The notes beneath the pieces are model-generated. The model did not search any database, was not told the origin of the DNA, and saw nothing but the letters and a program-made list of their open reading frames with translations. The translations under genes were made by a program, and so were the position numbers. A stretch of DNA of 64,000 nt from a virus (taxonomy: Duplodnaviria > Heunggongvirae > Uroviricota > Caudoviricetes): IMG/VR virus record IMGVR_UViG_3300022555_000023, positions 8,095 to 72,094 of that record; one strand, written 5' to 3'. This document shows, in pieces, positions 16,060 to 61,470 of the stretch. The stretch's first letter is position 1; each line of letters opens with the position of its first letter.

Positions 16060-16458
16060 TCAGAAACCGTCCTGAGCCTCGTTGCGGGCCGCAACCAGGC
16101 GTTCCAGTTCGGCCTCCAGATCGCGGACTCGCTCCTCGGTAGCAAAGTCGGCAACCCTGCCGCACATGCGTTCCATGAGGCTGAGCAGGTACATGCTCTT
16201 GCCACTGCGGGCATGACGGATCCAGTCGGCCACGAAGCCCTCCAGAACTTCATCCGTCATCTGGGCTCGGATAGCCGCCTGGATGCGGTTCTGCTCGCGC
16301 ACATACGGATTGCCGCCACTGCACCGATTACCTCTGAGAAACTTGCCCGACACCGGATCCCTGCCCGATGATGTCGACGTTGCTGCTTCGGTGGGCAACG
16401 CCGGCGGATCCTGCTTCGTATTCGGGTCGGAAGTGATACGCCTTCGATTGATACTCAT
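16060..16458 (-). CDS. hypothetical protein, possibly small-terminase-like; N-terminal RRRI tag
   Basis: MSINRRRITSDP. The GNRCSGGNPYVRE stretch is reminiscent of DUF5681-type small terminases (weak). Confidence 0.5.
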   Translation of the reverse strand: MSINRRRITSDPNTKQDPPALPTEAATSTSSGRDPVSGKFLRGNRCSGGNPYVREQNRIQAAIRAQMTDEVLEGFVADWIRHARSGKSMYLLSLMERMCGRVADFATEERVRDLEAELERLVAARNEAQDGF

Positions 16459-16607
16459 TATCGTCCTACCAGTTGAATTACCGGCTGCGTTCCGGTCGCC
16501 GTAGATCGCTACCGCGTGCGGCAGCCAGGCAACCCACAGATAAAAACGCAGCATCCATAACCATCGATCTTACATCGGGACCGGACTGCGTCAATACAAG
16601 TTAGCGG

Positions 16608-16850
16608 TTATTTCAGATCTTTCATCCAAAGATCATACTCTAACGCCACGTCGCGGTACTGCCTATGAAAGTGTTCCACGCTTTCGGCATCCCGCAGTTC
16701 GCTTGCGATCTGCATAGCACAAATGTTCCTGATCATTCGCAGATGGTAACCGATTACGCGTCGCAGTTGTTTGCACGCTTTGATCAACTGCCACGCACAT
16801 GCCAGGTTGATGAACGCGGCGGCGATAAAAACGAACCACATAACGGTCAC
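16608..16850 (-). CDS. small membrane protein
   Basis: MTVMWFVFIAAAFINLACAW transmembrane helix. Confidence 0.6.
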   Translation of the reverse strand: MTVMWFVFIAAAFINLACAWQLIKACKQLRRVIGYHLRMIRNICAMQIASELRDAESVEHFHRQYRDVALEYDLWMKDLK

Positions 16851-17599
16851 AGTTCACCACCGTTGGGCAGATTCTGGATGCGTCGTCGCTTCGGGCGTAA
16901 CTGCGGAGCAGTCGCACCAGGCGGGTCACGCAGATTGGGAATGCACGGCTCTTGGTCGATTTGCCGAATGCTGGCAAAAACGGCGGGCGGTATCTGCATC
17001 GCACGCATCACTCGCTGTTCTAACTCACGCATCTCCTCGGTGATATCTCGGGCTCGCGGCGTATTGGGGTTGCGCGGCTCACACGTCGGCCCAGTTGGTA
17101 CGACGTAGCGAAGATCGAGGGCGTCTTCAATACTACCGCCGTTGTGGACGCTTGGAATGACCGCGACCACCGAATCATGCATTGGGGCCGCTGTATAGCG
17201 GTGCCGATCCATCGCGTCGCGGAACGGCTCCATCGCTTCAAACGCACCATTCAGTGCCGTATCCAGGCCCGTACCAGCGAACACGTCCATCAGGGTGCGG
17301 CCCTGCGGCGGGTCTCGCAGTTCGGGCGGCTCAGGCCGCGGCGTTGCGCTCTGCACAGCCCACCGTAGACAATGCAAAGAGTTGATCATACAACTGCTCC
17401 ATCCCGATGGTGACGACGGATCAGGACTTGAATGTCTGATCACAGCTTCGCCCGCTTCCTTCAGAGCATCGCGATGCTGGGTGATGCGGGCGACGAAGTT
17501 GACCAGTTCATGATACTCCTCAGACGACGCATGGTTGCGTCGGGCTTGGTTGTAATTCCCCAGCAGTCTGTCCAGCGTTCGTCGTTCGTCTTGCGTCAT
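16847..17599 (-). CDS. hypothetical protein with C-terminal RRRIQ tag
   Basis: 250-aa ORF ending ..PKRRRIQNLPNGGEL*. Confidence 0.65.
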   Translation of the reverse strand: MTQDERRTLDRLLGNYNQARRNHASSEEYHELVNFVARITQHRDALKEAGEAVIRHSSPDPSSPSGWSSCMINSLHCLRWAVQSATPRPEPPELRDPPQGRTLMDVFAGTGLDTALNGAFEAMEPFRDAMDRHRYTAAPMHDSVVAVIPSVHNGGSIEDALDLRYVVPTGPTCEPRNPNTPRARDITEEMRELEQRVMRAMQIPPAVFASIRQIDQEPCIPNLRDPPGATAPQLRPKRRRIQNLPNGGEL

Positions 17600-17603
17600 G
17601 ATT

Positions 17604-18068
17604 TTACTCCATCCATGCCAGACACCCCGGCGTGCTACATCGTCCCCAGCAATGCCCGTTGATAGCCGCTATCGATAGCGTCAGCCGCCCGCCGCAGCCA
17701 GTCGGGCAATCTACGGTCTCCTGAGCGTTCTGGCGTTTGTGGCGGCTCCTGAAGGCATCCACGGTATCGGCGGCCATAGCATGACGTTCGAGAATACGGA
17801 TTAGTTCGATGTTCCTGGCTCGGCCCTCGGCCCGCGTGAACATAGCGAAATGATCACACGGCACGCGGTTTGAGTCCGATGCGTCGCTCAGTTTCCGGCA
17901 CGGTGCACGCAGTGCCCAGCCGATGTCAACCCCGCCTATCAGTCGCCTGATATCGATGTCCATAGCACACGGACGATCCTCTAACATGCCGCGAAAATGT
18001 CGGCATATCTGATCAGGCCCGGCCATCTTCGGGGCGGTTCTCATCCTGCGTCGTTCAGGCATGGTCAT
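17604..18068 (-). CDS. Cys-rich protein with N-terminal ERRRM tag
   Basis: MTMPERRRMRT.. CPTGCGG..GHCWGRCSTPGC. Confidence 0.65.
   Translation of the reverse strand: MTMPERRRMRTAPKMAGPDQICRHFRGMLEDRPCAMDIDIRRLIGGVDIGWALRAPCRKLSDASDSNRVPCDHFAMFTRAEGRARNIELIRILERHAMAADTVDAFRSRHKRQNAQETVDCPTGCGGRLTLSIAAINGHCWGRCSTPGCLAWME
17618..17625 (-). promoter_or_regulatory. GTGTCTGG junction motif
   Basis: 18 nt upstream of ATG 17599. Confidence 0.5.
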
Positions 18069-18111: not shown

Positions 18112-18963
18112 TCATAGTTCACCACCTTCACCCACGGGATTGTCGATGAAGTCCAGAAACTGTCGGCGTTGGTGGCCAGTCATGCTGCGAACTTGGTCTA
18201 CTGTCCAGCCATAGTATTCAGCCAGGCGTAGCTCGATGCAATCCTCGGGCGGTCGCAGGCCGATCATTACGATGTCCCACACGTTAGTGTTGTTGTTTCC
18301 GTTGCGGCCAACCAGCATGACCGTGCCCAGGGATAAGCTGCGTCGGACCGTGCTGGGCGACTCGCGGCCCGCACGAATGTTCTCCACGATGACTCCAGTA
18401 TCACGCACCTTGATCCGCACGCCAGACGGCTCCATACGGTCGGACATCAGCATCATGGCGTGTGCTTCGCCCAGTGGCCGCAGTTCCTCCAGCAGCACGC
18501 ACGACAGTATCTGGCTATATGAATCCGACCGCCGTCTGGTGAAGCATGACGTCATTTTGCGTCGTTCGACTGTTCTCGTGATTCGGAGTCGCTCCGGACG
18601 CTGCCGAACGTCATTGATCTCGATAACGATGAGGTTTTCTACAGTGCCACGATCACACCGCGGGTTAAATCGTGGGTCAGCAAACGTATTGCGATAACGT
18701 GGGTTTGGGTAGTTCTCATTCACGAGAGCATCACGACCATCGGAGAAACAGATCTCAGTCTCGGTTATGATCACCAAGTTTCGCGGCCCGCCAAAGTTGG
18801 ACCAGGCACATCGTAGCTCGACATCGTAGACTGACGGCACGCGTCCACCGACCAGAAGCGGCCTGATGTACATAACCAGGGCATTGACGTTGTGGCCCAG
18901 GCTGTCGGCGATGACCTTCATCATCACCTTGCCCGCCTTCGTGATCACGAGCATACCCGTCAT
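18112..18963 (-). CDS. hypothetical protein
   Basis: 283-aa ORF ending ..GEGGEL*. Confidence 0.65.
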   Translation of the reverse strand: MTGMLVITKAGKVMMKVIADSLGHNVNALVMYIRPLLVGGRVPSVYDVELRCAWSNFGGPRNLVIITETEICFSDGRDALVNENYPNPRYRNTFADPRFNPRCDRGTVENLIVIEINDVRQRPERLRITRTVERRKMTSCFTRRRSDSYSQILSCVLLEELRPLGEAHAMMLMSDRMEPSGVRIKVRDTGVIVENIRAGRESPSTVRRSLSLGTVMLVGRNGNNNTNVWDIVMIGLRPPEDCIELRLAEYYGWTVDQVRSMTGHQRRQFLDFIDNPVGEGGEL

Positions 18964-22143: not shown

Positions 22144-22455
22144 TTAGTTCATTTCGGGGCCGAAATGCGGAGAATTCGGATCGCCGACCGCCTGGTTCAG
22201 GCTTTCCGCCGGCGGATCCGCGATCACCTCGATGCCGGGCGGCGGTTCGGTCCACTGATCGCCCAGTTGCGATTTCCAGAACTCGATCATGCCGGGCAGG
22301 CAGTGTGCCGCGGCGTCAGCCCAGGTCGGCCAACGGCCACGCAGTTCGCGGAACCGCATTTGATAGTAGATGCTGCTCGCGTTATGAGGGAAATGCGGCT
22401 CATGTTTGTGGCCGCAGACCGGGCACATATCCTTGGACGGAGGGAGTAGAAGCAT
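22144..22455 (-). CDS. hypothetical protein (CxxC..H)
   Basis: MCPVCGHKHEPHFPHN..PTWADAAAHC. Confidence 0.6.
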   Translation of the reverse strand: MLLLPPSKDMCPVCGHKHEPHFPHNASSIYYQMRFRELRGRWPTWADAAAHCLPGMIEFWKSQLGDQWTEPPPGIEVIADPPAESLNQAVGDPNSPHFGPEMN

Positions 22456-23078
22456 TACGGTGCGAACTCCAGAGTTTCCATGTGCCTTCGACTCCTAAGT
22501 ATATCTTCGTGCGACACGCGAGGTGGTCTGAACTCGTTGCGCACCACGCGACCGTTCATGAGTTCGTTGTAATCAAAACGAACTTCAGTGGCCTGTCTAA
22601 ATGAGACGTCCTCACAGGCGAAGTCACACAGAGCGTTCTTAAATATGATAGCTATTCGTGGAATAAGAAGTTCGCCGCGAATGAACCTGCGTCCTCGATC
22701 ACGCAGACGATACCAGCCCTTCTTCAATACGCGTTCCTCGCGCCCGGCCACAATGATCAACTCAAATCGCTGCTCGACTACACCCCAGTGTCGCATATAC
22801 GATGAATCGCCCCATGATCCACTCGTGGTGTTATCGTGACCCTCAACTAGCCTGACAATCTCAATCCACTCCTCGCCGGTATTGTCGGTATATTCCTGCA
22901 TCCACTTCAGTATGCAGCAGTATTCACTAACGAATGGCCGTGGATAGAGACAGCACAGCCCTCCGCACACCTCACAGTGAAACTTCTCGCAGTCCCATAG
23001 ACGTCTCTCGTAATCTTCCTGCGTCTGGCGTATAACCGTCTCACGAGTAATAGTTTGCATCCGGCGTCGTTCGGGCAT
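22455..23078 (-). CDS. hypothetical protein with N-terminal ERRRMQT tag
   Basis: MPERRRMQTITRE after AAGGAGAA SD. Confidence 0.7.
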   Translation of the reverse strand: MPERRRMQTITRETVIRQTQEDYERRLWDCEKFHCEVCGGLCCLYPRPFVSEYCCILKWMQEYTDNTGEEWIEIVRLVEGHDNTTSGSWGDSSYMRHWGVVEQRFELIIVAGREERVLKKGWYRLRDRGRRFIRGELLIPRIAIIFKNALCDFACEDVSFRQATEVRFDYNELMNGRVVRNEFRPPRVSHEDILRSRRHMETLEFAP

Positions 23079-23235: not shown

Positions 23236-23420
23236 CCTATCCAGACATGCGGGTAGTCGCTCATGTGGCCCTCGTAAATCAACCAGAACACTTCGTCTCC
23301 GCCGATGGTCTCACCGCTTTCGGATGCATAATCATCGATCATGTTTCTGATCTCGGTTGGGCCGACGTTCTGGCCTGCGGTCAGGCGTTGCTGTAAGTAG
23401 TCTAGTAGGCTCATGATCAA
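23232..23420 (-). CDS. hypothetical protein
   Basis: 62-aa ORF, 4-nt overlaps on both sides. Confidence 0.55.
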   Translation of the reverse strand: MIMSLLDYLQQRLTAGQNVGPTEIRNMIDDYASESGETIGGDEVFWLIYEGHMSDYPHVWIG

Positions 23421-23794
23421 AGCTCCCAGCCAGGCCGCGATGATGGCGGCGGTGCAGGTGGTTCGGGCGGCGGTGTCTGCATGCGGCGGCGTACTATGAC
23501 TGGCCTCGTCAGTTCCCGTACCAGGGCGATCATAGCGTTTGTGGCAGTCTCAACGTCGGGCATGCGGCGACTCATGAAGGCCGCCTGCCTGTCTTCCAGT
23601 ATCTGCTTAATGCGGTTCTTGACGTCTTCGTCGGACATAACCTCGCGGCCACGCACGAAGTCCTCGGAGAACCGCATGATCTGGCCACGATACTCTGACT
23701 TACGATAGGCATCGTTGGCCGCGACGAGGCGGGTTAGTAGATTATGCAGAAAGTCGGTGTCGCCTTGGTTCATGCCTAACCAGACACGGCTCAC
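23417..23794 (-). CDS. hypothetical protein with C-terminal RRRMQT tag
   Basis: ..VRRRMQTPPPEPPAPPPSSRPGWEL*. Start is GTG 23794 or ATG 23773. Confidence 0.6.
   Translation of the reverse strand: MSRVWLGMNQGDTDFLHNLLTRLVAANDAYRKSEYRGQIMRFSEDFVRGREVMSDEDVKNRIKQILEDRQAAFMSRRMPDVETATNAMIALVRELTRPVIVRRRMQTPPPEPPAPPPSSRPGWEL
23780..23787 (-). promoter_or_regulatory. GTGTCTGG junction motif
   Basis: Between stop 23791 and ATG 23773. Confidence 0.5.
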
Positions 23795-25328: not shown

Positions 25329-25844
25329 TTATGATTCTCCTTGGGTTTGTATTTTGCGTCGTTCGATCACCTTCTCCTCGGCGGCGATGCGGCGTGCCAG
25401 GCTGGCAACAAATCTCCACGTCGGGGCCGAGGAATCGAACCAGGGCGCACTTACGGTTACCTTACCAAACACCGTAGCACCAGGGGCTCCCCACCATCTC
25501 TGGCCACGAGTTGTGATCGGCATGATCTCGATGAGCCCAGCCCACTGTGGGATATCATCGTGCGTCAGCAGGCCACCAGGCGTTGCGTAGTAAAACTCGT
25601 TGCACAGCATCCTGGCCCGGCGTTGCTTCATGCGATTCTTAACGTCGCTGCGAAAATCGGGGCGTGATACTTTGATCTCGATGGATACCCGCCGGCAGCG
25701 ACGGTCGGATTCTATTCCCCATAAGTCCATCGTGCGCTCGCCGTCGTCGCCGAAGCCTGACCCGACACGCATCTGCCGCATCCAGATCATTTTTCCCCAG
25801 GCCCGCATGTTCCGCACGGCGTGTTCGACTTCATCGGCAGTCAC
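25329..25844 (-). CDS. PD-(D/E)xK nuclease-fold protein (MmcB-like), C-terminal ERRKIQT tag
   Basis: D..SIEIKVSRPDF..NEFYYATPGGL pattern. Ends VIERRKIQTQGES*. Confidence 0.55.
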   Translation of the reverse strand: MTADEVEHAVRNMRAWGKMIWMRQMRVGSGFGDDGERTMDLWGIESDRRCRRVSIEIKVSRPDFRSDVKNRMKQRRARMLCNEFYYATPGGLLTHDDIPQWAGLIEIMPITTRGQRWWGAPGATVFGKVTVSAPWFDSSAPTWRFVASLARRIAAEEKVIERRKIQTQGES

Positions 25845-26234: not shown

Positions 26235-26590
26235 TGAATCCTTACCTTACGTGATGCGTCCTCAAACTTCCGCAGGCCGCTCAGGAACTTCGCGGTATCC
26301 CGCTGACTGCGGGCCGCCTTGACTGTAATGGCGTTGATTTCAGCACGCACGACGCCCTCCGCCCGCCTCTCGATCTTCAGCAGAGCCTTGGCCATCATCC
26401 AGCAGTGCCAATGCGCTTCTTCAAGCGTGAACTCGAACCCGCGACCGAAGTCGAAGTACTGATTGCCAACCACAAGCCATGTGCGGCACTCCTTGCGGCC
26501 CGTGACGCGAATCCAGCGATCAGCACAGTCCCGTTCTTGCACGGTAGCCTTTGGCGGAAGTACCGGCTTGTAATGTCGCGTCGTGATCAT
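26225..26590 (-). CDS. hypothetical protein
   Basis: Trimmed to ATG 26590 (ATGA overlap with upstream stop). Confidence 0.55.
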   Translation of the reverse strand: MITTRHYKPVLPPKATVQERDCADRWIRVTGRKECRTWLVVGNQYFDFGRGFEFTLEEAHWHCWMMAKALLKIERRAEGVVRAEINAITVKAARSQRDTAKFLSGLRKFEDASRKVRIHCK

Positions 26591-26793
26591 AGTTGATGCC
26601 TCCAGTGCGTCGGTTGATAGTAAACGTACATGCCACCATCCATGAACCACAGTCGCCCGTTCGAGCCACCACGCCGCATCCGCTGGATGTTCCGTTCGCC
26701 CTCGTGGTCGCTGATTTTGGTCTCGACGGCTACATCCATCGGCGGCGAAGTGTCCGTGATCGGCTGCCAGGTTTGTATGTAGCGTCGGGTCAT
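26587..26793 (-). CDS. DUF551-like small protein with N-terminal TRRYIQT
   Basis: Trimmed to ATG 26793 (ATGA overlap). W.PI..P...THW pattern. Confidence 0.45.
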   Translation of the reverse strand: MTRRYIQTWQPITDTSPPMDVAVETKISDHEGERNIQRMRRGGSNGRLWFMDGGMYVYYQPTHWRHQL

Positions 26794-27840: not shown

Positions 27841-28082
27841 GGCTTCTCCGCCTTCATGCTGATCACGCAGAACGACTCGCTGCGGGAAATCTGGCCACCG
27901 TTCTGATAGTTGAACTTGTGGTACAAAATATGATGCCCCTGCCAGTCGAAGGTAGACCAGCCGTTGCCCACCTCGCGGACGTTCGTCGCTCCCGTGGGAA
28001 GGGTGTCACTGGTCGGGGCCACCGTGGTTTCGCCGCAGCCGATACATAAAACCAGCAGGGCTAGAGCTAGAAGTCGTTTCAT
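27837..28082 (-). CDS. lipoprotein
   Basis: AAGGAGGA SD, MKRLLALALLVLCIGCG lipobox. Confidence 0.7.
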   Translation of the reverse strand: MKRLLALALLVLCIGCGETTVAPTSDTLPTGATNVREVGNGWSTFDWQGHHILYHKFNYQNGGQISRSESFCVISMKAEKP

Positions 28083-28474
28083 GTTTGGATCCTCCTTCGC
28101 GTTGGGGTGGCAGGGGCCGCTGTTTGGCCCCACAGGCGGTCAAAGTCACTGGCCAGCCGTTCTATCGACCTGCGGGCGACGGGCTCACGTGCGGCCACAG
28201 GCGGCGTCACAGCGGGTCGTGACGGGGCCTGGGCTGGCGTTCGGGTAGTTAAGGCCGATACATCGGCCAGGGGCTTGTCCCAGGCGGGCAAACCGGCGTC
28301 TTCCTCGCCCCACGGCAAATGGCCGGGAGCCTCGCCGGTCTCGGACCTCGTGTACTGGCCGAACTTGTCCCGAACCATGACCACCGGCGGCCCAGACTTA
28401 TTTATGAGCCCGTGGAAGATGATCTCGGCAGTAGCTTGGTCGATGTCGTGCATGGTGCTTTCAATACTGGACAC
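28079..28474 (-). CDS. hypothetical protein ending in RRRIQT
   Basis: ..ATPTRRRIQT*. Here the tag codons CGA AGG AGG ATC CAA ACA double as the SD of the lipoprotein gene. Confidence 0.6.
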   Translation of the reverse strand: MSSIESTMHDIDQATAEIIFHGLINKSGPPVVMVRDKFGQYTRSETGEAPGHLPWGEEDAGLPAWDKPLADVSALTTRTPAQAPSRPAVTPPVAAREPVARRSIERLASDFDRLWGQTAAPATPTRRRIQT

Positions 28475-28889: not shown

Positions 28890-29251
28890 AGCCCCTTCTG
28901 ATCACGCTCCAGTTTGATGCGGGGACTGTTCAAGTACCTGTGCATCTCACGCCACAGGCGGCGGGACTCATCGGTCAGCCATATTAGGTAGTCCAGTGGA
29001 ACAGCATCGATACGCTTACCCTCGTACTTCCCAAACCTCATGGTCGCCGTCTGGCCATAGGCTTTGGCCTCGACATCGTTCATGGGTACGGTCGCCGCAG
29101 TTCCCTGTTCCGGACGAACAGGTGCTGGTAGCCAGGGACTTATCAGTTCGCCTAAACGATTAGCAACAATACGACGACCGAGATCATTCATATCACTAAC
29201 TTCGCTAATGACCAAGGCTGCCAACTCGGATGCAACTTCACCTGGACTCAT
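28886..29251 (-). CDS. DUF3820-like protein
   Basis: MRFGKYEGKRIDAVPLDYLIWL signature. The N-terminal 42 aa are paralogous to 30046..30177. Confidence 0.6.
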   Translation of the reverse strand: MSPGEVASELAALVISEVSDMNDLGRRIVANRLGELISPWLPAPVRPEQGTAATVPMNDVEAKAYGQTATMRFGKYEGKRIDAVPLDYLIWLTDESRRLWREMHRYLNSPRIKLERDQKGL

Positions 29252-29793
29252 TTAGGTTGATTCCTTACTAAATTCCGTTCCACAATCGCCTCTGCAACTC
29301 GAAGTAAAGGCCCCTCACCCCAGACACCCATAGCGTTATTCACTAGTAACCAAACAATTCTAATGTTACCCTGAACGTAACCACACGATGGATCAATACG
29401 ATCTAACGACATCTTTCCGTAGTCAGTAGTTTGCTCAAACGGCATAGCCGTTATAGCACAAACACCGCCCTGTAAATCATAAACCTGACGCAGGTATTCT
29501 AGCGATATGTTGCAATCCAGGTTACGTCTGGCACTACGAGCACGTGCGTTTCGCATCATACACTCTAACGCTATGGAAACATCTACGTGACGACGATCTC
29601 GATGCTTGCGTTGACTCTTGCCAATTATCGCCCTTGCCTTGTCTGGATCATTCTTCCAAAGTTCTGCCCATCTTTTTGCACTACGCATATTTATAGATTC
29701 ACGATTCCGTAGGTAACACTGGCGATTTGTGTACCTCTTTCTAGCCTTCCTAATTTCTTCAGGACTTGTTTGAATTCGTCGTCGTTCTAGCAT
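29248..29793 (-). CDS. HNH homing endonuclease, N-terminal ERRRIQT
   Basis: TAAGGAGC SD before ATG 29793 (MLERRRIQT). ..SLDRIDPSCGYVQGNIRIVWLLVNNAMG. Locally AT-richer than its surroundings. Confidence 0.75.
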   Translation of the reverse strand: MLERRRIQTSPEEIRKARKRYTNRQCYLRNRESINMRSAKRWAELWKNDPDKARAIIGKSQRKHRDRRHVDVSIALECMMRNARARSARRNLDCNISLEYLRQVYDLQGGVCAITAMPFEQTTDYGKMSLDRIDPSCGYVQGNIRIVWLLVNNAMGVWGEGPLLRVAEAIVERNLVRNQPK

Positions 29794-30410: not shown

Positions 30411-30463
30411 GTTTGTTAACCTCCTACGTTCAGGTTAACAGTCATCCGCAAGCCGTGCAAGGC

Positions 30464-33428: not shown

Positions 33429-33626
33429 TTATCTCCTGGTTTCACGTTTGTCCCGCACTAGACGCCGGCGGTCGGTCGAAACTGGATCGGCCTTGCGTCG
33501 TTCTTTGGCCCTGGTGGCTCGACGGGCGTCCCGCCACCATACCATACGATGATACGTTACGTCTATAAACACCACCAGCAGTAGACCCAGGCCACCACCT
33601 ATCATCACGCACATGATCTCACGCAT
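33429..33626 (-). CDS. small membrane protein
   Basis: MCVMIGGGLGLLLVVFIDV transmembrane helix. Confidence 0.55.
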   Translation of the reverse strand: MREIMCVMIGGGLGLLLVVFIDVTYHRMVWWRDARRATRAKERRKADPVSTDRRRLVRDKRETRR

Positions 33627-42732: not shown

Positions 42733-42740
42733 CCAGACAC
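42733..42740 (-). promoter_or_regulatory. GTGTCTGG junction motif
   Basis: Abuts stop TAG of 42740..43669, 46 nt upstream of ATG 42686. Confidence 0.5.
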
Positions 42741-43669: not shown

Positions 43670-43697
43670 GACTTGCTCCTATACGACGTCTAGACAC
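43642..43697 (-). promoter_or_regulatory. imperfect inverted repeat bracketing SD and ATG of 42740..43669
   Basis: Minus strand: GTGTCTAGACGTCG..TAGGAG..ATG..GACGCATCCAGACAC. Outer 6-8 bp plus an inner CGUC/GACG pairing are possible. Confidence 0.4.
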
Positions 43698-44996: not shown

Positions 44997-46211
44997 TTAC
45001 TTCTTTCCGAATCTAAGCCAAATATCACTGCCACTACCACAGGCCGGGCTGAACCAAACACGCTCGCGGCCCGCGTTCCCGCGAAGAAACTGCCCGCCCT
45101 TCTCTACCTTCTTGTTAGCCCCATCCTGACCCTGGTTTCCGTAGCCTCCTGCGGCTGTCCACGCGTGAACTGCCCATCCGTTCTGCTCAAGGATATCACC
45201 TTCCGGTGTATAGCCGCAGTACGCGATGCGGTAGATATTCGTGTCTTTGTTCGCTCGGCACCACGCGGGGTCGGTATGCTGGATGCACCACTCCTTGATC
45301 TTGGTGCTGATGTCGGCATCCTGATTTGTGTATAGGGTGCCGTTGAAGTTGGCATCAGCACCGTAGGGCGGGTCGAACATGATGCCTATTTTGCCCGTTC
45401 CCGTGAACGCGGGCGTCACGGCCCGCGACCAGTCACCGCTGAGGACTAATGTCTGTCGCATGCGGTACGACAGGGCTCGCATCCACGACTTGAGGTAGTC
45501 AAGCTCCTGCCGCAGCACGCCCCGGTTCCCCACGCAGGGCACGCTACAGGTGATGCCGTTGCCGTCCCGTCGCGGGTCGTCCTTCTCCAGGCACACAAGC
45601 TCGTCGTTGATGACGTACCACGGGCCGTCGCCGCTACAGAACCCACCGCCCAGCTTCATGCAGATGCCCCACAGCCACCACGCGCCGAGCTTCACGTCAC
45701 AGAAGTCGGTACTGCCGCCCACGAGCTTCCGCATGCGATCCCTGGATCGCGTGAGGTGCGAGTGGATGGCGTGCAGTTCCATCTCGGCCAGCATGATACC
45801 GTTGCAGATCTCAGCCACCTCGTCGGGATGACGGCTGATGGCCCTCCACGCGTTCACCAGGAGGGCATCGTAGTCGTTGAGGACTTCACGGCCCACCCAC
45901 GGCTGTGGTCGCACGAGGTACGTTGCTGCGGATCCCATGCACGGCTCGATATAGCAGTCGAGGGTCTTGGGATCCAGGCGACTCCATATCTCATTAGCGA
46001 CACCGCTTTTTCCGCCGAAGTACGGATAGGGGGCAACAAGTAGCTTCTCGTCCACGTTCCCGCTATCACCAATATGCCTGCGAGCAGGGGTCGCAATCGA
46101 GCGACGGACGAGGGTACGCTGGTCGGATGTCGGTTCTTCCGCGACGGGAACCTCCACGGACGAGATGATGCGGCGTCGTGTAGGTACGGTTTCGATATTT
46201 CGGCGTTCCAT
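44997..46211 (-). CDS. Dam-like (D12 class) N6-adenine DNA methyltransferase
   Basis: YPYFGGKSGVANEIW..YIEPCMGSAA..NDYDALLVN and catalytic DPPY (IMFDPPYGA). N-terminus MERRNIETVPTRRRII. Confidence 0.8.
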   Translation of the reverse strand: MERRNIETVPTRRRIISSVEVPVAEEPTSDQRTLVRRSIATPARRHIGDSGNVDEKLLVAPYPYFGGKSGVANEIWSRLDPKTLDCYIEPCMGSAATYLVRPQPWVGREVLNDYDALLVNAWRAISRHPDEVAEICNGIMLAEMELHAIHSHLTRSRDRMRKLVGGSTDFCDVKLGAWWLWGICMKLGGGFCSGDGPWYVINDELVCLEKDDPRRDGNGITCSVPCVGNRGVLRQELDYLKSWMRALSYRMRQTLVLSGDWSRAVTPAFTGTGKIGIMFDPPYGADANFNGTLYTNQDADISTKIKEWCIQHTDPAWCRANKDTNIYRIAYCGYTPEGDILEQNGWAVHAWTAAGGYGNQGQDGANKKVEKGGQFLRGNAGRERVWFSPACGSGSDIWLRFGKK

Positions 46212-53615: not shown

Positions 53616-54686
53616 TCATTCAGACACAGATGATTCTAGACGTCGCCGCGTCAATTGCCGGCCTACGGTTTCCTCCGGGTTGGCCCGTGGAAACTGCGGG
53701 CCGGCCAAGCACGCCTTGCCCGCTGCCTTCAGGTCGTCGCTGATCTGGTCGGCGTTGCTGGCGCAGTAGTGATTGAACAGGTCACCGGGCGGCAGACGCC
53801 GGGCGGCCAAGTCCATCGGGCTCATGTGGTGAACATCGCGTTCCACGAGCCTGCACCCGCACAGCACGGCCCTTTGGCGTTCGGCAAACTCCTGCACCCG
53901 CCGGCGGCACTCGTTCCAGGTGTCAAACTCGGCCCGCTTCAGCCGCACCTCGATCTTGATCATGTCGCCGGGGTTCACCCGCATATCGGTAAGCCGGTCG
54001 GTGCCATCGATGACCAGCTTCCGCTTGGCCGGGAACGGCGGGTTGATATCCTCGTAGTCCCGACCACTGTCGAAGATCACCCGCGGTATGTATTCATCGC
54101 CGAAGTCAACGTGGTACGGTGCCCCGACATACTCGATGTTCGCCAGCCGCTGCGGAACATGAACGTCCCCGCAGTATACCCTCGCCCGCGTACCCGAGAA
54201 CGTCGAAGTCGGCAGGCCATCTAAACGCTTCCCGCCGCCGATACTGGCCCCGTGGAATGTCTGGTGGGCGAATATGTAGTCGAAGTCGGACATCCTGTAG
54301 CCTTCGGCGTACTGCCGCACAGCCCGCGTGTGAGGCAGGAACAGGCACTTGGACTCGCCGAGGGTGCGCTTGGTAGGCTCCAGAAAGAACTCCACGCCCG
54401 TATGCCGCAGCCAACGGAAGTAGGGCACGTCGGGGTTCACGTAATCGTGGTTGCCCATCAGAACGATAGTCGGAGCGGCGTCGTCGAGGAGTTTCAGCCC
54501 ATCGGCAATAGCGTTCGCCAGGGCCGAAGAGTGTCGATCCTTGGATTCCGTCAAATCCCCAAGGATTATGATATAGTTCACGTGCCGCCGCGTCGCCTCA
54601 CCCGCCAGCCACTCAAAGATTCTCAATCGATAGGCGTCTCGCAGGTTATCGGTCTCGTGCAGGTCGCTGGCTATCAGTAAGTTCAT
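53616..54686 (-). CDS. Mre11/SbcD-like metallophosphoesterase nuclease
   Basis: LIASDLHE, ILGDLTE, MGNHD and FAHQTFHGA calcineurin-like motifs. C-terminus ..LTRRRLESSVSE*. Confidence 0.8.
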   Translation of the reverse strand: MNLLIASDLHETDNLRDAYRLRIFEWLAGEATRRHVNYIIILGDLTESKDRHSSALANAIADGLKLLDDAAPTIVLMGNHDYVNPDVPYFRWLRHTGVEFFLEPTKRTLGESKCLFLPHTRAVRQYAEGYRMSDFDYIFAHQTFHGASIGGGKRLDGLPTSTFSGTRARVYCGDVHVPQRLANIEYVGAPYHVDFGDEYIPRVIFDSGRDYEDINPPFPAKRKLVIDGTDRLTDMRVNPGDMIKIEVRLKRAEFDTWNECRRRVQEFAERQRAVLCGCRLVERDVHHMSPMDLAARRLPPGDLFNHYCASNADQISDDLKAAGKACLAGPQFPRANPEETVGRQLTRRRLESSVSE

Positions 54687-54833: not shown

Positions 54834-55451
54834 TCACATCGCGGCTGAATTGATTCCGCCATTCGTCACCACGCCATAGTATGTGATCAGCAGGGCGTCG
54901 CATACCGCCATTTGCTCCTTCTTCGTCTTCTGCCACACGTCCAGATCGGGCATCAGTTCCTGAGCCCGCTTGCGGATATCCTCTTTGTGTTCAGCCTGGA
55001 GCAGTGCTTTGACCGCCTTGGTCGTCCGTGTGCTGCCGTCCTGCTTGCGGAAGTCCACGGGCACTGGCTTGCGGGTCGTCGGGATGTTCATGGCCCGCTG
55101 CCAAGTGGCGGGCTGCACCTTAACCGGGATGATATCCAGAGCTGTCATGAACGCCAGAAGTCGCCCGTAACCTACGCCAAACTTGAATGCCCCAGCCACG
55201 CCCATCGCATAGGCATGCACGGCCTCGATGTAGACGCTGACGTTGCTTGGATCCGCGATATGCTGCCGCAGCCAAGCCCACAGTTCGTCGTTCCCTTCGG
55301 GCATCCGCTTGACCAACATGATCGCGTTGGGTCCGGTCTCGGTGACAGCCAAGCCACCGTTCATGCCGGGATCGATACCCATGATCAGTCTGCGTTCGGG
55401 AGTGATCACCTCACGCCAGTCGGTAGTTTTAATGCGGCGGCGTTCGGTCAC
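54834..55451 (-). CDS. RuvC-like Holliday junction resolvase, N-terminal ERRRIKT
   Basis: IMGIDPGMNGG, VYIEAV, ..PATWQRAM.., VCDALLI catalytic pattern. Confidence 0.75.
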   Translation of the reverse strand: MTERRRIKTTDWREVITPERRLIMGIDPGMNGGLAVTETGPNAIMLVKRMPEGNDELWAWLRQHIADPSNVSVYIEAVHAYAMGVAGAFKFGVGYGRLLAFMTALDIIPVKVQPATWQRAMNIPTTRKPVPVDFRKQDGSTRTTKAVKALLQAEHKEDIRKRAQELMPDLDVWQKTKKEQMAVCDALLITYYGVVTNGGINSAAM

Positions 55452-56024: not shown

Positions 56025-56564
56025 TTACGAATCTGCTCGCACTAAACCACCGTTTCGTATCTTCACCAGCATCGGGTCACCGTGCCGCTTGAACCGCTGG
56101 TAGTGCTTCCGACACATTCCTAATTCAAAGGACTGATCACCACAAAAACATACTACACTAGTTTTCCGCTTTCCTCGTTTCCCGTGCTGCCAGTGCCACT
56201 TAGTATGACATCGCGGGCATAGCGTCATTCGGTTAGACGGATCGTTGTTCTCTTTGTCGCCATCGATGTGATGTGTTCCTAACCGCTTCCGCTGTCGTTT
56301 GCACATCTCGCACCGCCGTTTCTTCGGCAGTTTGCTGTTCCTGGTTGCTACGGTCTCCAGAGACAGCTTCGGCACCTCGATCAGCTTGTAGCCGATGCGC
56401 TCGTTACGGCACAAGGCGACCTGCCGGTCGGCGGGCACGTGCGGCGTCTCGTTGCCGGCACCGACATAGGTCTGCTGCGATACGCCCCACACGTAGAAGG
56501 GCATGATGTATTCACCGTCCACGATCACGTGAACCGTATCGCCGGGTTTCGGTAAGGTAATCAT
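56025..56564 (-). CDS. HNH homing endonuclease
   Basis: CEMCKR..THHIDGDKENNDPSNRMTLCPRCHTKWH plus C-terminal CG..MCRKHYQRFKRHGDP. Confidence 0.85.
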   Translation of the reverse strand: MITLPKPGDTVHVIVDGEYIMPFYVWGVSQQTYVGAGNETPHVPADRQVALCRNERIGYKLIEVPKLSLETVATRNSKLPKKRRCEMCKRQRKRLGTHHIDGDKENNDPSNRMTLCPRCHTKWHWQHGKRGKRKTSVVCFCGDQSFELGMCRKHYQRFKRHGDPMLVKIRNGGLVRADS

Positions 56565-56872: not shown

Positions 56873-57265
56873 ATGGATATCACGTGTAACCTCTGCGGCG
56901 TTCCTCAACCGACCACCGAATTTTCGGGACTACGCAACCGTTCGTATAGATGTAAAACGTGCTGCACAAAAAGGAAAAACGAGTGGCGACGTCAGGTACG
57001 GGTTGCTGTACTACAAATGCTCGGCGGATGTTGCTGCAAATGTGGGTACAACAAACATCCTGAAATATTACAAGCAGATCATATTGTTGCTATCGGCGGC
57101 GGACGTCATAGAACTGGTGATAACACGGTCAGGGCCTATAAAAACCCCGAACTCTACCAACTCATGTGCCCAAACTGCCATGCTCTGAAAACTATCAAGG
57201 ATAAGATCATTCTTCGGAACAAACAGACTAAACATTCAACGCCAAAGGCTACACCCGCCGCTTAG
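56873..57265 (+). CDS. HNH homing endonuclease (plus strand)
   Basis: Trimmed to MDITCNLCG. CCKCGY..ADHIVAIGGG..NPELYQLMCPNCHALK. GTGTCTGC lies 1 nt before the ATG. Confidence 0.75.
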   Translation: MDITCNLCGVPQPTTEFSGLRNRSYRCKTCCTKRKNEWRRQVRVAVLQMLGGCCCKCGYNKHPEILQADHIVAIGGGRHRTGDNTVRAYKNPELYQLMCPNCHALKTIKDKIILRNKQTKHSTPKATPAA

Positions 57266-57934
57266 AATGACCGACATCACCACGTCGCTCGGCACGTCTG
57301 GAAGCAGTTGTATCCTAAGATTCGTAAACTCAACATCATAGACCTTCAGCTTTGGTACGATCACTCGCGTACCACCCATCGCACGCCATTGTTGGAGTGG
57401 GATATTCCACCCATAACCATATCCAAAACTGCCCCATCCGATGGTCTTGCCGTTGCGGGACAGTGCGTTGTTCAGCAGCTTCGGCCCGCGATGTCCGTAA
57501 GCCTTCCAGATCATTCGCAGCGGAACCACAATCACGTCTTGCATTAGCCTGGCAATTTCATGATATAGCTCGGTCTTACTCTCAGCCTTCGAGACCTGGC
57601 AGTGGTGATGCCAGAACCAGTAGCATAACTGGTAGCCGCGGAGGCAGAAGTCGGCGTCCTTGCGCAGGCGGCTCTGATAGATGATCGCCTGGTCAGTGTT
57701 GCCGACCGACTTGCTCTCGAAGAACAGCCGGCGGGAATACTGGATGTCTGGACAAATCTCGCAGCGGCAGTCCGTCCGGAGTCGCACGCTGCTGGTGAGG
57801 CATGCGGTTGCTTCCTCCATGAAATCGCCCACCATCACGCGACACATACCGTGCGTCATCTCTTGCGTATCAAACATCATACGTTGACGTTCAACTGATC
57901 TCGGCTTCGGGAGTTGGTGTCGATTCAGCCTCAT
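57236..57934 (-). CDS. putative PD-(D/E)xK nuclease-fold protein
   Basis: CPDIQYSRRLFFESKSVG fits a D..(E/D)xK motif. N-proximal SVERQRMMF. Start uncertain. Confidence 0.4.
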   Translation of the reverse strand: MRLNRHQLPKPRSVERQRMMFDTQEMTHGMCRVMVGDFMEEATACLTSSVRLRTDCRCEICPDIQYSRRLFFESKSVGNTDQAIIYQSRLRKDADFCLRGYQLCYWFWHHHCQVSKAESKTELYHEIARLMQDVIVVPLRMIWKAYGHRGPKLLNNALSRNGKTIGWGSFGYGYGWNIPLQQWRAMGGTRVIVPKLKVYDVEFTNLRIQLLPDVPSDVVMSVILSGGCSLWR

Positions 57935-58483: not shown

Positions 58484-59044
58484 TCAAAATGGGACATCGT
58501 CCACCCTACCACGGTTCGCGGCTATGGTTCGCAGCCTAAGATTCCTATAAGAACAGTTCGCCCTATTCTTATCTCGATGATCTACATCGTAACCATCCGG
58601 TATTAGTTTTCGGCGAACGGCCATGTAAACTAATCTGTGAACCATAGCACCCTTGCGGTGACCGTTCCAGTAGATGCGGACGCTGGGGTAACCATTACGG
58701 TCTAAATCCTGCTTGAGGATGACCCACTGCTTCGTCCACTCGTGACAAACCTTGCGGTGCTTACGAACCACGCCGGTTATCGGATTGACCTTGAGATGAC
58801 CTTCCTCGATCAGTTGTAGTATTTGATCATCGGTCATCCTGCGGTATTTGCGCTCGCGGTAGTTTCGCAGCTTCTCGACGTAGACTGCGTCGGTTCGCCA
58901 TTTGCCGCCGCAGGCAAGGCACTTCACCTCGGAATACTTACTGGCCACCTCGTCGCCGGTCGTCGATGTAGCCACGAACCGCCGCGTGCAAACGTAGTTA
59001 CTCCGGGTTCTACATCCCGGCAGACAGCGGCAGCCTTGAGCCAT
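58484..59044 (-). CDS. HNH_3-type homing endonuclease
   Basis: NGYPSVRIYWNGHRKGAMVHRLVYMA..DVDHRDKNRANCSYRNLRL. Confidence 0.8.
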   Translation of the reverse strand: MAQGCRCLPGCRTRSNYVCTRRFVATSTTGDEVASKYSEVKCLACGGKWRTDAVYVEKLRNYRERKYRRMTDDQILQLIEEGHLKVNPITGVVRKHRKVCHEWTKQWVILKQDLDRNGYPSVRIYWNGHRKGAMVHRLVYMAVRRKLIPDGYDVDHRDKNRANCSYRNLRLRTIAANRGRVDDVPF

Positions 59045-59416: not shown

Positions 59417-59417
59417 A

Positions 59418-59672
59418 TCATTCGTACCTCGGCTTTATTAACCACAGGTCGGGTCGGCCCTGAACTGATGTGATGCTAATAGAATGGGCGAAGGGAAACA
59501 TGGCCTTCGCCTGCTCCATCGCCTCGCCCGTGGTTTTGCCCAACACGATATGAGAATCGGGACGCGTGCTATCGTAAATCTCCGGTGATGACTCCAGCAC
59601 GCCGCGGACGACGAAGCCCACCACGTATCCTACAGCCACCGCAATTCCGGTTACGATCCACATGGCCGTCAC
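59418..59672 (-). CDS. small membrane protein
   Basis: MTAMWIVTGIAVAVGYVVGFVV transmembrane helix. Confidence 0.55.
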   Translation of the reverse strand: MTAMWIVTGIAVAVGYVVGFVVRGVLESSPEIYDSTRPDSHIVLGKTTGEAMEQAKAMFPFAHSISITSVQGRPDLWLIKPRYE

Positions 59673-59675
59673 CTC

Positions 59676-60248
59676 CTAGCGACGTCCGCGTCGTGCCGCC
59701 CAGCGAGCAAATAGGCCCTGGCGTTCGCGCCCGCCCCGTGACGATCCGTACTGATCACCCTGCGGTGTCGTTTCAGGGGCGACGGCTGGGGGCGTCTGGC
59801 CGACTTCGCGTCGGGCCTCGGCTGTTTGCAGGGGATGCGTGATAGCCCGCACAGCGTTTGCCACAGGGCCGTTGGGTCGATTGCCCACGAATAACTGGCA
59901 GAACTTGACCCCGTTGTTGTATGACGCTGCGGCCCCGGCGTAGGTAAAGTTGCCGGTTGTATTGCACGCCAGCCAGCCACTGCTGATAGCTCCGCCGTCG
60001 CAGCCGCCGAAGTCGGCCCATGATCCCCTGGGCAGGAACGCGAAGTCGTTCCCGGTGTGGTGATGCATGCCGTAACTGGCACGATAGTCGGCGCAGGCCA
60101 TCGCACCCTGCGTCATCGCTGCGTCCCGCTGGAATGCAGGCATACCGTGCTGGGCACGAATTGCGTTCACTTCATCGAGAGCATCGGTCGCGGCATTGGC
60201 AATGCCCGCAATGCATACGACCACAAAGAACAAAACTGACTTCATCAT
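59676..60248 (-). CDS. secreted CAP/SCP/PR-1-like protein
   Basis: Trimmed to ATG 60248 (TAGGAGGA SD). Signal MMKSVLFFVVVCIAGIANA. ALDEVNAIRAQHGMPAFQRDAAMTQGAMACAD resembles the SCP-like family. Confidence 0.55.
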   Translation of the reverse strand: MMKSVLFFVVVCIAGIANAATDALDEVNAIRAQHGMPAFQRDAAMTQGAMACADYRASYGMHHHTGNDFAFLPRGSWADFGGCDGGAISSGWLACNTTGNFTYAGAAASYNNGVKFCQLFVGNRPNGPVANAVRAITHPLQTAEARREVGQTPPAVAPETTPQGDQYGSSRGGRERQGLFARWAARRGRR

Positions 60249-60276
60249 CTTCTTCCTCCTAATGGTGAAATTCGCC

Positions 60277-61470
60277 TTAGCTACCGTACTTCGAGAAGTT
60301 CGGCGAGAATGACTCCTCGATCTTGTCCCACTCGGCCCGCACCACTGCGGACATACGCTTGGATTCGCTAATGTACATTTCACGCGGCTGTTTGTCCAGC
60401 CACTTCAGGTACGTTCCAGGTTTTCGTTCATCGAACAGTTCCCACTTCTTCACCTCAACTAACCAGTCTGCCATCGATTCGATGTCATCGATGCCGTAGT
60501 CAAAGATCACGGGGAACTCGCACTCGCGGAACGGCGGGCCACACTTGTTCTTCTTGCACTTGGCCTTGATGCGAACACCGACCACGCGTTCGATGCCGTT
60601 GACCGAGCGTTTGATCTGGCCAATATGCGACAGCCACACCACCCACGAAGCGTAGAAGTCCAGGGCTTTGCCGCCGGCACGCGTCGCCTTCTCGCCGAAC
60701 GATACATTCAGCTTGTCGCGTAGCTGCGAGATGACTATCAGGGTCACCTTGGCGGAGTTCAAAGGGCCGGCCAGGGTGCGGAAGAACTGTGACATGCGTT
60801 TGGCCTTCGCCATACCGTAACTGGCCTTGTCCATACCGCCATCCAGTTCGGCCTGATCGCTCAGGGCATCAAGGCTATCGATGATATACAAGCCTGGCAC
60901 GCGACGGCGTTCACACTCGGCAATGAAGTCCTTCACGTCCTGAAAGAACACCTCGACGATACGGCACTCCTCGACGAAGCTGATTCTGTCCATCGGCAGT
61001 CCCATGCGGCGGGCATAATTCACATCGAACGCGGCCTCGGCGTCGTTATATCGCGTGATGCCGGTCGGATAGGCGATGGAAAAGTTGGCACACGCCTCGA
61101 TGCATACGCCTGTCTTGTTCGTTGACTGCCAGCCAGCGAAGTTCACCACGCGGCCTTCAGGGAACGCTCCGCCACCACCACCACCAATCTCGCAGTCCAG
61201 AAGGGTACAGCCCGAACCGAATCGTTTAACACGGATATCCTCCATGTCGCCCGTGAGCCCGTAGGCCCCACCGTCGCGTACCAACGGCTCGTCATCGGTA
61301 TCGCGGGCGGTCTTGCGGCGAGTAGCCTTAGCCGTGCGACGTGGGGCTGCACGTGACCCGCGGGCCGGTGTTTCATCTTCGGTTGACTCGACGTCTTCGT
61401 CCTCTTCCTCACGCTGCGGAGGTGGGGGCGTTGCCGTTACGAGACGTCGTCGAACTATTTTCTTCGCCAT
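60277..61470 (-). CDS. RecA-fold recombinase-like ATPase
   Basis: Degenerate P-loop GWQSTNKTG, Walker B LYIIDSLDAL, GGKALDFYAS as in RecA. Acidic N-terminal region preceded by MAKKIVRRRLVT. Confidence 0.65.
   Translation of the reverse strand: MAKKIVRRRLVTATPPPPQREEEDEDVESTEDETPARGSRAAPRRTAKATRRKTARDTDDEPLVRDGGAYGLTGDMEDIRVKRFGSGCTLLDCEIGGGGGGAFPEGRVVNFAGWQSTNKTGVCIEACANFSIAYPTGITRYNDAEAAFDVNYARRMGLPMDRISFVEECRIVEVFFQDVKDFIAECERRRVPGLYIIDSLDALSDQAELDGGMDKASYGMAKAKRMSQFFRTLAGPLNSAKVTLIVISQLRDKLNVSFGEKATRAGGKALDFYASWVVWLSHIGQIKRSVNGIERVVGVRIKAKCKKNKCGPPFRECEFPVIFDYGIDDIESMADWLVEVKKWELFDERKPGTYLKWLDKQPREMYISESKRMSAVVRAEWDKIEESFSPNFSKYGS

Follow-up and report, generated by a model that had tools for sequence, protein, structure and literature searches.

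Many of the proteins encoded in a 64,000-nucleotide stretch of phage DNA (positions 8,095 to 72,094 of IMG/VR record IMGVR_UViG_3300022555_000023; hereafter, the window) share a short arginine-rich peptide near one of their ends. This peptide tag has the consensus (E/V/T)-R-R-(R/K)-(I/M/L)-x-(T/S). Our analysis reveals that it is a genuine short linear peptide motif. It lies on N- or C-terminal extensions that are flexible and rich in proline, and at least two dozen proteins that are otherwise unrelated carry it. All of the tagged proteins that can be annotated act on DNA. We regard the observation as solid and the mechanism as moderately supported. By analogy with known recruitment motifs, our best reading, held with middling confidence, is that the tag is a peptide-level docking or targeting motif that would gather DNA enzymes at a common hub, most likely the gp32-like single-stranded DNA (ssDNA)-binding protein (SSB) of the phage.

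A terminal peptide on unrelated proteins

The window is a single long minus-strand run of genes from an uncultured phage, and the tags listed below are all on that strand. An earlier note, made from the sequence alone, had listed 19 copies of the tag. Each was found in the gene named there, on the minus (coding) strand and in the coding frame, with four of them being weak. Including weak copies, there are 24 tagged proteins in the window. Against 1000 residue shuffles of the 115 called proteins, the regular expression suggested in that note gave 7 matches versus a shuffle mean of 0.03. The pattern RR[RK][IML][QKRENTVI][TNSA] gave 17 matches (shuffle mean, 0.30; maximum, 3), and the shorter RR[RK][IML] gave 23 (shuffle mean, 2.96; maximum, 9). 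The expected enrichment at protein ends was also evident, as 16 of the 17 RR[RK][IML][QKRENTVI][TNSA] matches lie within 30 residues of an end, a zone that holds 36.5% of residues (binomial p ~1e-6). Finally, the carriers are unrelated, as had been claimed. In an all-versus-all BLASTP, similarity between tagged proteins was confined to the tag, except for one pair (33626..34609 and 37026..37583) with paralogous C-domains (E=7e-11).

The tag and its surroundings have a consistent anatomy. Among 22 sites, the aliphatic position is I, M, or L in all 22, the last position is T or S in 19, and Q is frequent. Glutamate directly precedes the arginines in 9 of 13 N-terminal copies and in one C-terminal copy. 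Over the 12 residues that flank the tag on its domain side, proline makes up 14.8%, compared to 5.0% in the proteome (p=4e-8), and there are few hydrophobic residues. Consistent with a flexible extension, pLDDT in the AlphaFold2 model of the RuvC-like protein stays below 50 over residues 1-16 and is 85-95 in the adjoining core. The tag thereby shows the hallmarks of a short linear motif: a conserved peptide in a disordered, fast-evolving flank that is convergent on unrelated proteins and kept in their orthologues.

Annotation with Pfam and PHROG identified in the window a gp32-like SSB, a RecA/UvsX-like recombinase, Rad50-like and Mre11-like proteins, a RuvC-like resolvase, a 5'-3' exonuclease, a D12 (Dam-like) methyltransferase, a PD-(D/E)xK repair protein, and HNH endonucleases, which upheld the HNH, RuvC-like, PD-(D/E)xK, Dam-like, 5'-3' exonuclease, Mre11-like, and RecA labels proposed earlier. 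At the N terminus, the recombinase (60277..61470) carries VRRRLVT (61435..61455) within its opening MAKKIVRRRLVT, followed by a proline-rich, acidic linker. The RuvC-like Holliday junction resolvase (54834..55451) carries ERRRIKT (55425..55445), and the D12-class methyltransferase (44997..46211) carries a double tag, MERRNIETVPTRRRIIS (46161..46208). Several HNH endonucleases are tagged as well. The HNH / endonuclease VII-like protein 29248..29793 begins MLERRRIQT (tag ERRRIQT, 29767..29787), the HNH endonuclease 35256..35693 has a weak N-terminal copy, ERQKIAT (35667..35687), and the HNH_3 endonuclease 58484..59044 has a weak TRRFVAT at residues 20-26 (58967..58987). At or near the C terminus, TRRRLES (53631..53651) is carried by the Mre11-like phosphoesterase (53616..54686), a weak SRRRIGA (43674..43694) by the FEN / RNase H-like 5'-3' exonuclease (43656..44519), and ERRKIQT (25344..25364) by the PD-(D/E)xK-like DNA repair protein (25329..25844), which ends IERRKIQTQGES. 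Just beyond the window, a clamp loader begins MAERRKLTR, and a second D12 methyltransferase ends PRRKIQRV.

The other carriers are less well characterized, and for ten unannotated tagged proteins neither Pfam nor PHROG returned a functional match. N-terminal tags are present on a 154-residue protein (17604..18068; phrog_31210, function unknown) that begins MTMPERRRMRT (ERRRMRT, 18036..18056), a 207-residue protein (22455..23078; phrog_2693, function unknown) that begins MPERRRMQT (ERRRMQT, 23052..23072), and a 132-residue protein (16060..16458) that begins MSINRRRITS (NRRRITS, 16429..16449). A 309-residue protein (42740..43669) with no Pfam or PHROG match has a double tag, MPERRRIQTPPVVRRRMNT (43613..43663). 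Weak N-terminal copies occur in a small protein (26587..26793; TRRYIQT, 26770..26790) and about 15 residues into protein 57236..57934 (ERQRMMF, 57872..57892). Two further copies, both in proteins without a family match, are possible: SRRRIIR (4768..4788) at residues 13-19 of a 167-residue protein (4321..4824) and the weak PRRKIRY (4240..4260) at residues 14-20 of a 355-residue protein (3232..4299). A Shine-Dalgarno sequence is recognizable before most of the tagged N-terminal starts and is weak at 17604.

C-terminal copies of this kind include KRRRIQN (16871..16891) near the end, KRRRIQNLPNGGEL, of a 250-residue protein (16847..17599); VRRRMQT (23474..23494), which lies 18 residues from the C terminus of protein 23417..23794 and is followed by a proline-rich tail; TRRRIQT (28082..28102) at the extreme C terminus of protein 28079..28474; and VRRRIQT (37050..37070) near the end, VRRRIQTLPDSGEI, of protein 37026..37583. 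A 327-residue protein (33626..34609) ends in a double tag, KRRKITRGKRTVVRRRIQSTGEL (33641..33697), the second copy of which is KRRKITR. Next to the SSB, an upstream gene that extends past the end of the window encodes a 169-residue protein ending QRRRMNSTSRE (QRRRMNS, 63901..63921). The sole clearly internal copy is also double, ERLRITRTVERRKMTS (18547..18597), and occupies residues ~123-138 of a 283-residue protein (18112..18963). Overall, two tag copies lie 9-12 residues apart in three proteins.

No identifiable metabolic or secreted protein is tagged. Annotated proteins without the tag include an NAD-dependent epimerase, an AdoMet decarboxylase, a spermidine synthase, an SPFH protein, a TSCPD protein, and a CAP-domain protein whose N terminus, judged by eye, is hydrophobic and signal-peptide-like. 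By the same judgment, several untagged small proteins have hydrophobic N termini that resemble signal peptides or those of lipoproteins. Downstream genes, which we took to be structural without family evidence, have no terminal tags.

Conservation in related phages, on which the proposal of a tag depended, is borne out. In orthologues with 57-83% identity, the tag is found at the matching end even though synonymous changes and linker indels have accumulated, and distant homologues are without the extension. For example, RuvC-like homologues at 61-83% identity all begin M[TSP]ERRRI[KI]xT, with a 9-residue linker indel behind the invariant ERRRI, and homologues at 30-34% identity are without the tag extension. 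Similarly, a 64%-identical homologue of the FEN-like exonuclease ends SRRRIGAN, and the extension is absent at 37-47% identity. RecA orthologues begin MAKKIVRRRPIA (68% identical) and MAKKVVRRRVIA (59% identical). In two related contigs (L089 and L091), the tag is kept on the clamp loader (MVERRKLER), on the orthologue of the 169-residue protein, which ends QQRRRVSTTRSE, and on the Mre11 orthologues, which end QRRRLGTVSG and QRRRLDSTVSG. The same contigs encode an HNH protein that ends PRRKIQTV and another protein that ends ARRRITS. The weak TRRFVAT of HNH 58484..59044 is TRRRLAT or TRRRVAT in orthologues. We also noted that the RuvC-like gene of L089 is interrupted (10001..11559). A 220-residue version is followed by the HNH_3 gene ending PRRKIQTV and then by a 137-residue duplicate of the C-terminal half of RuvC, an arrangement that looks like a homing-endonuclease insertion.

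Beyond close relatives, the tag changes its form. In contig L059, whose RecA is 57% identical, a shifted consensus, RKRF, is found on RecA, at the N terminus of a methyltransferase, and at the C terminus of another protein. The clamp loader there begins MKRKKMSE, and a PD-(D/E)xK nuclease ends YRRRLKP; the latter belongs to the same Pfam family as protein 25329..25844, a family match that does not establish orthology. Within the first 25 residues of RecA homologues, [KR]3[VILMF] occurs in 35 of 120, compared to 5.5 in shuffles (maximum, 13). Within the last 60 residues of SSB homologues it occurs in 27 of 111, compared to 10.3 in shuffles (maximum, 21), and these copies cluster 24-33 residues from the end as (S/T)RRRV(T/E)(D/E)DD. 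In Vibrio phage MAR10, RecA begins MTETRRRRTK, gp063 begins MALLRRRVIHT, and RuvC ends SRRKRRVTKK. In Edwardsiella phage vB_EpM_ZHS, comparable sequences are the terminal PRKRVPLE, PRRERIHLL at the end of RuvC, PRKRERVEVE in RecA, and a terminal PRRSRVQLV. Among RecA-anchored loci from IMG/VR and JGI metagenomes (39-48% identity), there were zero strict RRR[IML][QKRE][TNS] matches on the coding strand. C-terminal [KR]3[ILMFV] was found 13 times in these loci versus ~3.4 expected, a count that includes duplicated contigs, and ~9 times versus ~4.5 in another tally, which we did not consider significant. The tag was added to enzyme cores in this phage lineage, and looser counterparts extend across the wide group of phages that share a clamp, PolA, clamp-loader, SSB, RecA, RuvC, Mre11, and Rad50 module.

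Peptide or nucleotide element

The earlier note favored selection on the peptide over selection on a nucleotide site. Our findings agree, because the tag occurs in frame only, because arginine codons change synonymously between orthologues while RRR is kept, and because the tag forms a conserved island in indel-prone linkers. Codons for the Arg, Ile/Met/Leu, Gln, and Thr residues of the tag vary within the genome, and RRR persists between RecA orthologues through CGA/CGC and CGT/CGC/AGG changes. Nor is the nucleotide consensus enriched in other frames, non-coding DNA, or the opposite strand. Specifically, a 21-nt matrix built from 22 tag sites recovered 21 of them along with seven other minus-strand matches (two in each of the three codon phases and one in non-coding DNA) and four on the plus strand. 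In the 2.9 million viral contigs of IMG/VR, the exact nucleotide consensus was matched 31 times, as single occurrences attributable to chance.

A DNA- or RNA-level element that happens to be translated, for example an RNA operator near starts like the T4 RegA sites, a promoter, or a recombination or junction sequence, would be consistent with some of the features of these sites. The copies all lie near gene junctions, their wobble positions are A-biased with CGA overused, and two C-terminal copies also form the ribosome-binding site of the next gene (the codons of TRRRIQT at 28082..28102, for instance, serve as AGGAGG). Furthermore, one copy contains the reverse complement of the junction motif GTGTCTGGAT, and a non-coding look-alike, GAACGTAGGAGGTTAACAAAC, precedes a start at 30411. 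Against this reading, the spacing between the tag and the nearest start codon, about -138 to +45 nt, is too variable for an operator or a promoter, C-terminal copies always share the frame of the upstream gene, and the peptide is kept while its codons vary. Taken together, these results largely refute the nucleotide-level explanation, which we rate as very improbable.

The codon usage of the tag deserves separate mention. CGA is used in excess, as had been pointed out, accounting for 23 of 61 Arg codons compared to ~20% at gene ends (p=0.002). The tags avoid CGG, which accounts for 3 of the 61. Codons with A at the third position make up 43% in tags, compared to 20-23% at gene ends generally. 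A general translation-start effect was considered and accounts for the bias only in part, since this difference from gene ends and the CGA excess both remain. The exclusive use of GAA for glutamate in the tag mostly reflects a genome-wide preference for GAA in GAA-CGN pairs (59:23). As for sites outside the tagged genes, an off-frame ARRRIET at 52339, after a possible TTG start, falls in a 32-codon open stretch inside another gene and is probably due to chance. The look-alike GAACGTAGGAGGTTAACAAAC (30411..30431) lies directly before an ATG and is a ribosome-binding site inside a small inverted repeat, TTAACCT...AGGTTAA.

A link between the tag and the GTGTCTGGAT junction motif, which had been raised as a reason to keep a nucleotide-level component in play, turned out to be coincidental. 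The motif is a separate, mostly intergenic element on the coding strand, and its exact reverse complement is found in one tag copy only. In the form GTGTCTGG(A/T), it has 13 coding-strand copies versus ~1 expected and one on the other strand. The copies of GTGTCTGG on the minus strand are at 56829, 52773, 49113, 42740, 42197, 35877, 35267, 32764, 31207, 29327, 23787, 21540, and 17625. Most are intergenic, 20-50 nt upstream of a start, and they are often followed by (A/T)..GCAT(A), as in GTGTCTGGATAGCATAAG. The element looks like a phage-specific promoter or processing signal and is unrelated to the peptide tag.

Function of the tag and its candidate hub

The idea of a docking or targeting tag on DNA enzymes fits the lists of tagged and untagged proteins. 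Under this reading, the tag would be a common label that concentrates DNA-acting enzymes at a shared hub on replicating or recombining phage DNA. The most likely hub is the gp32-like SSB, which would be engaged through its acidic, mixed-charge tail or through its core. This identification is tentative and draws on analogy and on the client list. The SSB (62458..63780, minus strand) begins MPTRGNDRNRGG. In its AlphaFold model, a confident core (residues 35-270) is followed by a 150-residue disordered tail of acidic or mixed charge and by a C-terminal helix (residues 427-439; pLDDT 68-79), which is basic and ends SLRDRVAEGRRRSES. The multivalent acidic tail described in the earlier note is real, with six DD(D)PPPAR-type units. 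Among 111 SSB homologues (P0131-P0241), long mixed-charge RD/RS/DDD regions of low complexity are common, often at both ends, and nearly all end in a basic amphipathic tip of the type S-D-R-L-R-R-M-R-E-R-R-D. Only two homologues end in the bacterial-type DDDIPF or DEIPF. At two loci where the SSB ends in an IPF tip of bacterial type, a very small sample, the clamp loader, the 169-residue homologue, and the PD-(D/E)xK nuclease are without RRR[ILM] tags.

Phage T4 offers a precedent for both halves of such an interaction. In T4 gp32, KRKST at residues 3-7, the "LAST" motif, binds the core of the adjacent gp32 (PMC12893549), and replication and recombination proteins are recruited by the acidic C-domain of gp32 (PMC11551737). 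The tag may dock on the SSB of this phage in a way that resembles LAST, and doubled tags may add avidity on a multivalent SSB-ssDNA array. We take the list of tagged clients to be broadly parallel to the partners of T4 gp32.

A number of observations weigh against the idea that the tag docks DNA enzymes on the SSB. PolA, Rad50, the clamp, and one HNH protein (56025..56564) are without the tag, no function is known for about half of its carriers, and one tag copy is internal. The codon bias described above goes beyond what selection on the peptide would produce. In addition, HNH homing endonucleases and methyltransferases are not classical SSB partners. Finally, the SSB itself ends in a basic peptide, and about a quarter of its homologues carry an RRRV-type copy in the tail. 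The SSB may therefore be a fellow client of another receptor, or the tag may bind the SSB core and not the acidic tail.

If no protein receptor were involved, the tag could be a non-specific nucleic-acid anchor, a basic tail that binds DNA directly and so raises the local concentration of the enzyme. We regard this as unlikely, with several observations in its favor. The annotated clients all act on DNA, the tag has three arginines, and the SSB itself bears such basic peptides. The near-identical KRKTS of T4 gp32 sits in the ssDNA-binding trough (PMC12893549), and termini in cultured relatives are less stereotyped and simply basic (RRRRTK, SRRKRRVTKK, SRRRRSR). Yet, an anchor of this kind would not predict constraint on the non-basic positions, that is, the invariant aliphatic residue, the nearly invariant T/S, the frequent Q, and the preceding Glu in most N-terminal copies. 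Acidic stretches that often directly follow the tag, as in RecA VRRRLVTATPPPPQREEEDEDVE and the RRRV[TE][DE]DD of SSB tails, are likewise awkward for DNA binding.

A linear signal for targeting into a phage-built replication compartment or condensate, analogous to a nuclear localization signal (NLS) and with the SSB tail as one potential scaffold, overlaps with the docking reading and strikes us as slightly less probable than the anchor. It accounts better than a classical SSB interactome for a client list that includes HNH proteins and methyltransferases and excludes metabolic and secreted ones. The presence of the tag at either end, sometimes doubled, would also suit it, as would the mixed-charge RD/RS/DDD tails at both ends of the SSB family, which are typical of condensate scaffolds. 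Furthermore, the tag is expanded in large genomes (192 kb; a contig of at least 79 kb), and cultured relatives of 71-79 kb have fewer and looser copies. Two points count on the other side. No shell, import, or tubulin gene turned up in the ~85 kb that we read, where no systematic search for them was made, and the chimallivirus nucleus, the only known phage nucleus, uses surface patches, with no linear signal found there (PMC11087766). More boldly, the tag could be the first linear "address label" of a phage, sorting replication, recombination, modification, and homing enzymes into a replication compartment or an SSB-scaffolded condensate in the manner of an NLS. We consider it about as doubtful as the anchor. 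The dialect would then differ from lineage to lineage, with RRRIQT used here, RKRF in a relative, and what looks like PR[KR]xR[VI] in Edwardsiella phage ZHS.

The tag might instead be a regulatory site, such as the substrate of a basophilic Ser/Thr kinase, the target of an arginine-modifying enzyme, or a terminal degron that times the removal of early enzymes. Basophilic Ser/Thr kinases recognize R-x-R-x-x-S/T, a pattern matched by the RRR-x-x-T/S of most copies, and accessible termini are suited to modification as well as to proteolytic recognition, the RRKKAI end of MuA that is recognized by ClpX being a case in point. The T/S is lost, however, in the RKRF variant of a relative (RKRFKA, RKRFSA, RRRLKP), and why RecA, the clamp loader, and Mre11 should all be degraded together is hard to see. 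Near the tagged genes, neither a kinase nor an ADP-ribosyltransferase was identified, the sole hint being a weak PI3/PI4-kinase Pfam match in a 1,676-residue, putatively structural-side protein. Regulation of this sort is improbable in our estimation, though less so than a nucleotide-level element. Capsid targeting, another option in the earlier note, is unlikely for tagged proteins that include RecA, the clamp loader, and Mre11.

Some other candidates were set aside. The sliding clamp was down-weighted as the receptor because the motif is unlike clamp-binding motifs and because RecA- and SSB-type proteins are not clamp clients. A Tat signal, a capsid targeting sequence, and a true NLS of a eukaryotic virus were ruled out by the Shine-Dalgarno sites, the overlapping ATGA junctions, the phage gene set, and the lack of an h-region. 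A Tat signal peptide has an N-terminal S/T-R-R-x-F-L-K with a hydrophobic h-region behind it. By contrast, no hydrophobic stretch follows the tag, its flanks are proline-rich or acidic, nearly half of the copies are C-terminal, and its carriers are DNA enzymes of the cytoplasm.

Should the tag prove to serve in docking or targeting, a large phage would organize its whole toolkit for DNA metabolism with one portable peptide, a label that selfish homing endonucleases and methyltransferases seem to have taken up as well. For the roughly ten tagged proteins of unknown function, the tag predicts action on phage DNA. More generally, it bears on how phages that lack a chimallin nucleus could concentrate their own enzymes and keep others out. 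Since recognizable versions occur in the cultured Edwardsiella phage vB_EpM_ZHS and Vibrio phages MAR10 and SSP002, these ideas are directly testable. A portable 7-residue tag that recruits cargo to sites of phage replication would also be a useful tool.

The phage and comparable systems

The phage is distant from those in culture. No nucleotide match to the window was present among 50,697 phage records, and a 10 kb megablast against INPHARED returned none. An identical RecA protein is encoded on a 192,532-bp contig (ERZ27245846 k141_83342), the ends of which are bridged by the window: RecA and gene 1125..1646 map to 167.6 kb and 35 kb of the contig, respectively, yet are 59 kb apart in the window. 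The genome of ~192.5 kb is therefore circular or circularly permuted. The ~85 kb of sequence that we read is part of this 192.5 kb genome. Among phages in culture, the closest are Edwardsiella phage vB_EpM_ZHS and the Vibrio MAR10/SSP002 group (RecA ~40% identical), with which this phage has in common a module of clamp, PolA, clamp loader, SSB, RecA, RuvC, Mre11, and Rad50.

Several other features of the sequence were noted. A polyamine biosynthesis pair, a spermidine/spermine synthase-like protein (12476..13177) and an AdoMet decarboxylase (13155..13718), is encoded side by side. A perfect tandem array with 4.7 copies of the 15-bp unit CTGTCTACATAGATA (10784..10853) falls in a stretch without a called gene, inside a lower-GC segment (~0.53), and could represent iterons or an origin-like or regulatory array. 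Downstream of the window, a 921-residue protein has intein-splicing and LAGLIDADG domains (L092 15015..17780). Proteins of 173, 820, 328, and 1,676 residues (window 1125..1646; L092 10532..20522) share a different N-terminal motif, x-x-(F/Y/I)-I-V-D-(L/M)-F-L-S followed by GD-x-AGH-x-F-x-GNQYT. This motif may represent another terminal module in shared use, perhaps one of virion-internal proteins.

In the literature searched, we found no described equivalent of the tag, in agreement with the earlier note. Several known systems share some of its properties. Like the T4 capsid targeting sequence, it is a short terminal peptide that is shared by unrelated phage proteins and may address them to one destination. 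The T4 sequence, which is not rich in arginine, is restricted to the N terminus of virion proteins and undergoes cleavage by the prohead protease, whereas the tag is found at both ends and on replication and recombination enzymes. The tag also recalls import into the chimallivirus nucleus (the PicA pathway) in that replication and recombination enzymes are selectively gathered and metabolic proteins are excluded. Unlike the linear terminal tag here, chimallivirus import has no conserved linear signal, and patches on folded surfaces are implicated (PMC11087766). The bacterial SSB, with its C-terminal tip (DDDIPF), is a further parallel because one short peptide organizes many enzymes of DNA metabolism around the SSB. 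The polarity is inverted, however, for the bacterial SSB bears the peptide and its partners bear the pockets, and here the peptide is on the partners and the SSB ends in a basic helix.

The two closest comparisons are with sliding-clamp motifs and with LAST. Like the bacterial QL[SD]LF-type motif and the PIP box (QxxLxxFF), which recruit proteins to one hub, the tag is a short terminal motif on flexible tails, sometimes duplicated, of many unrelated replication, repair, nuclease, and methyltransferase proteins. In contrast to them, it is arginine-rich with one aliphatic residue and has no aromatic pair or hydrophobic plug, and RecA- and SSB-type proteins are not clamp clients. A beta-clamp-like gene is located just outside the window. 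In this clade, the conserved N-terminal peptide of PolA is a different one, GxF(F/Q)TR(I/V)(D/E)L, which we speculate might be a clamp-binding motif. The PolA-UDG fusion polymerases of the clade (L060 838..3477, L059 1635..4226, and L086 20074..22728) share this N-terminal feature, with MGDGKFFTRIDLKAP, MAGFGLFQTRVELLKP, and MGFFHQKG, which are unlike the arginine tag.

The resemblance to LAST, (Lys/Arg)3(Ser/Thr)2, is one of composition and setting: three basic residues with Ser or Thr soon after, at about residues 3-9 of a flexible terminus, in a phage whose replication and recombination apparatus includes an SSB of the gp32 type. The differences are that in the tag an aliphatic residue is obligatory after the arginines, with Gln as the usual next residue, before a single Thr or Ser, an arrangement that few copies depart from in the direction of LAST (RRRITS, RRKMTS, RRRMNST), and that the tag can be at either protein end. 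Furthermore, LAST belongs to the N terminus of the SSB and to SSB-SSB cooperativity, whereas the tag is on some two dozen partner enzymes and not at the N terminus of the SSB, which has a basic C-terminal helix instead. Although it has the defining sequence of neither, the tag would work like the clamp-binding and PIP motifs and resembles LAST in its composition and position.

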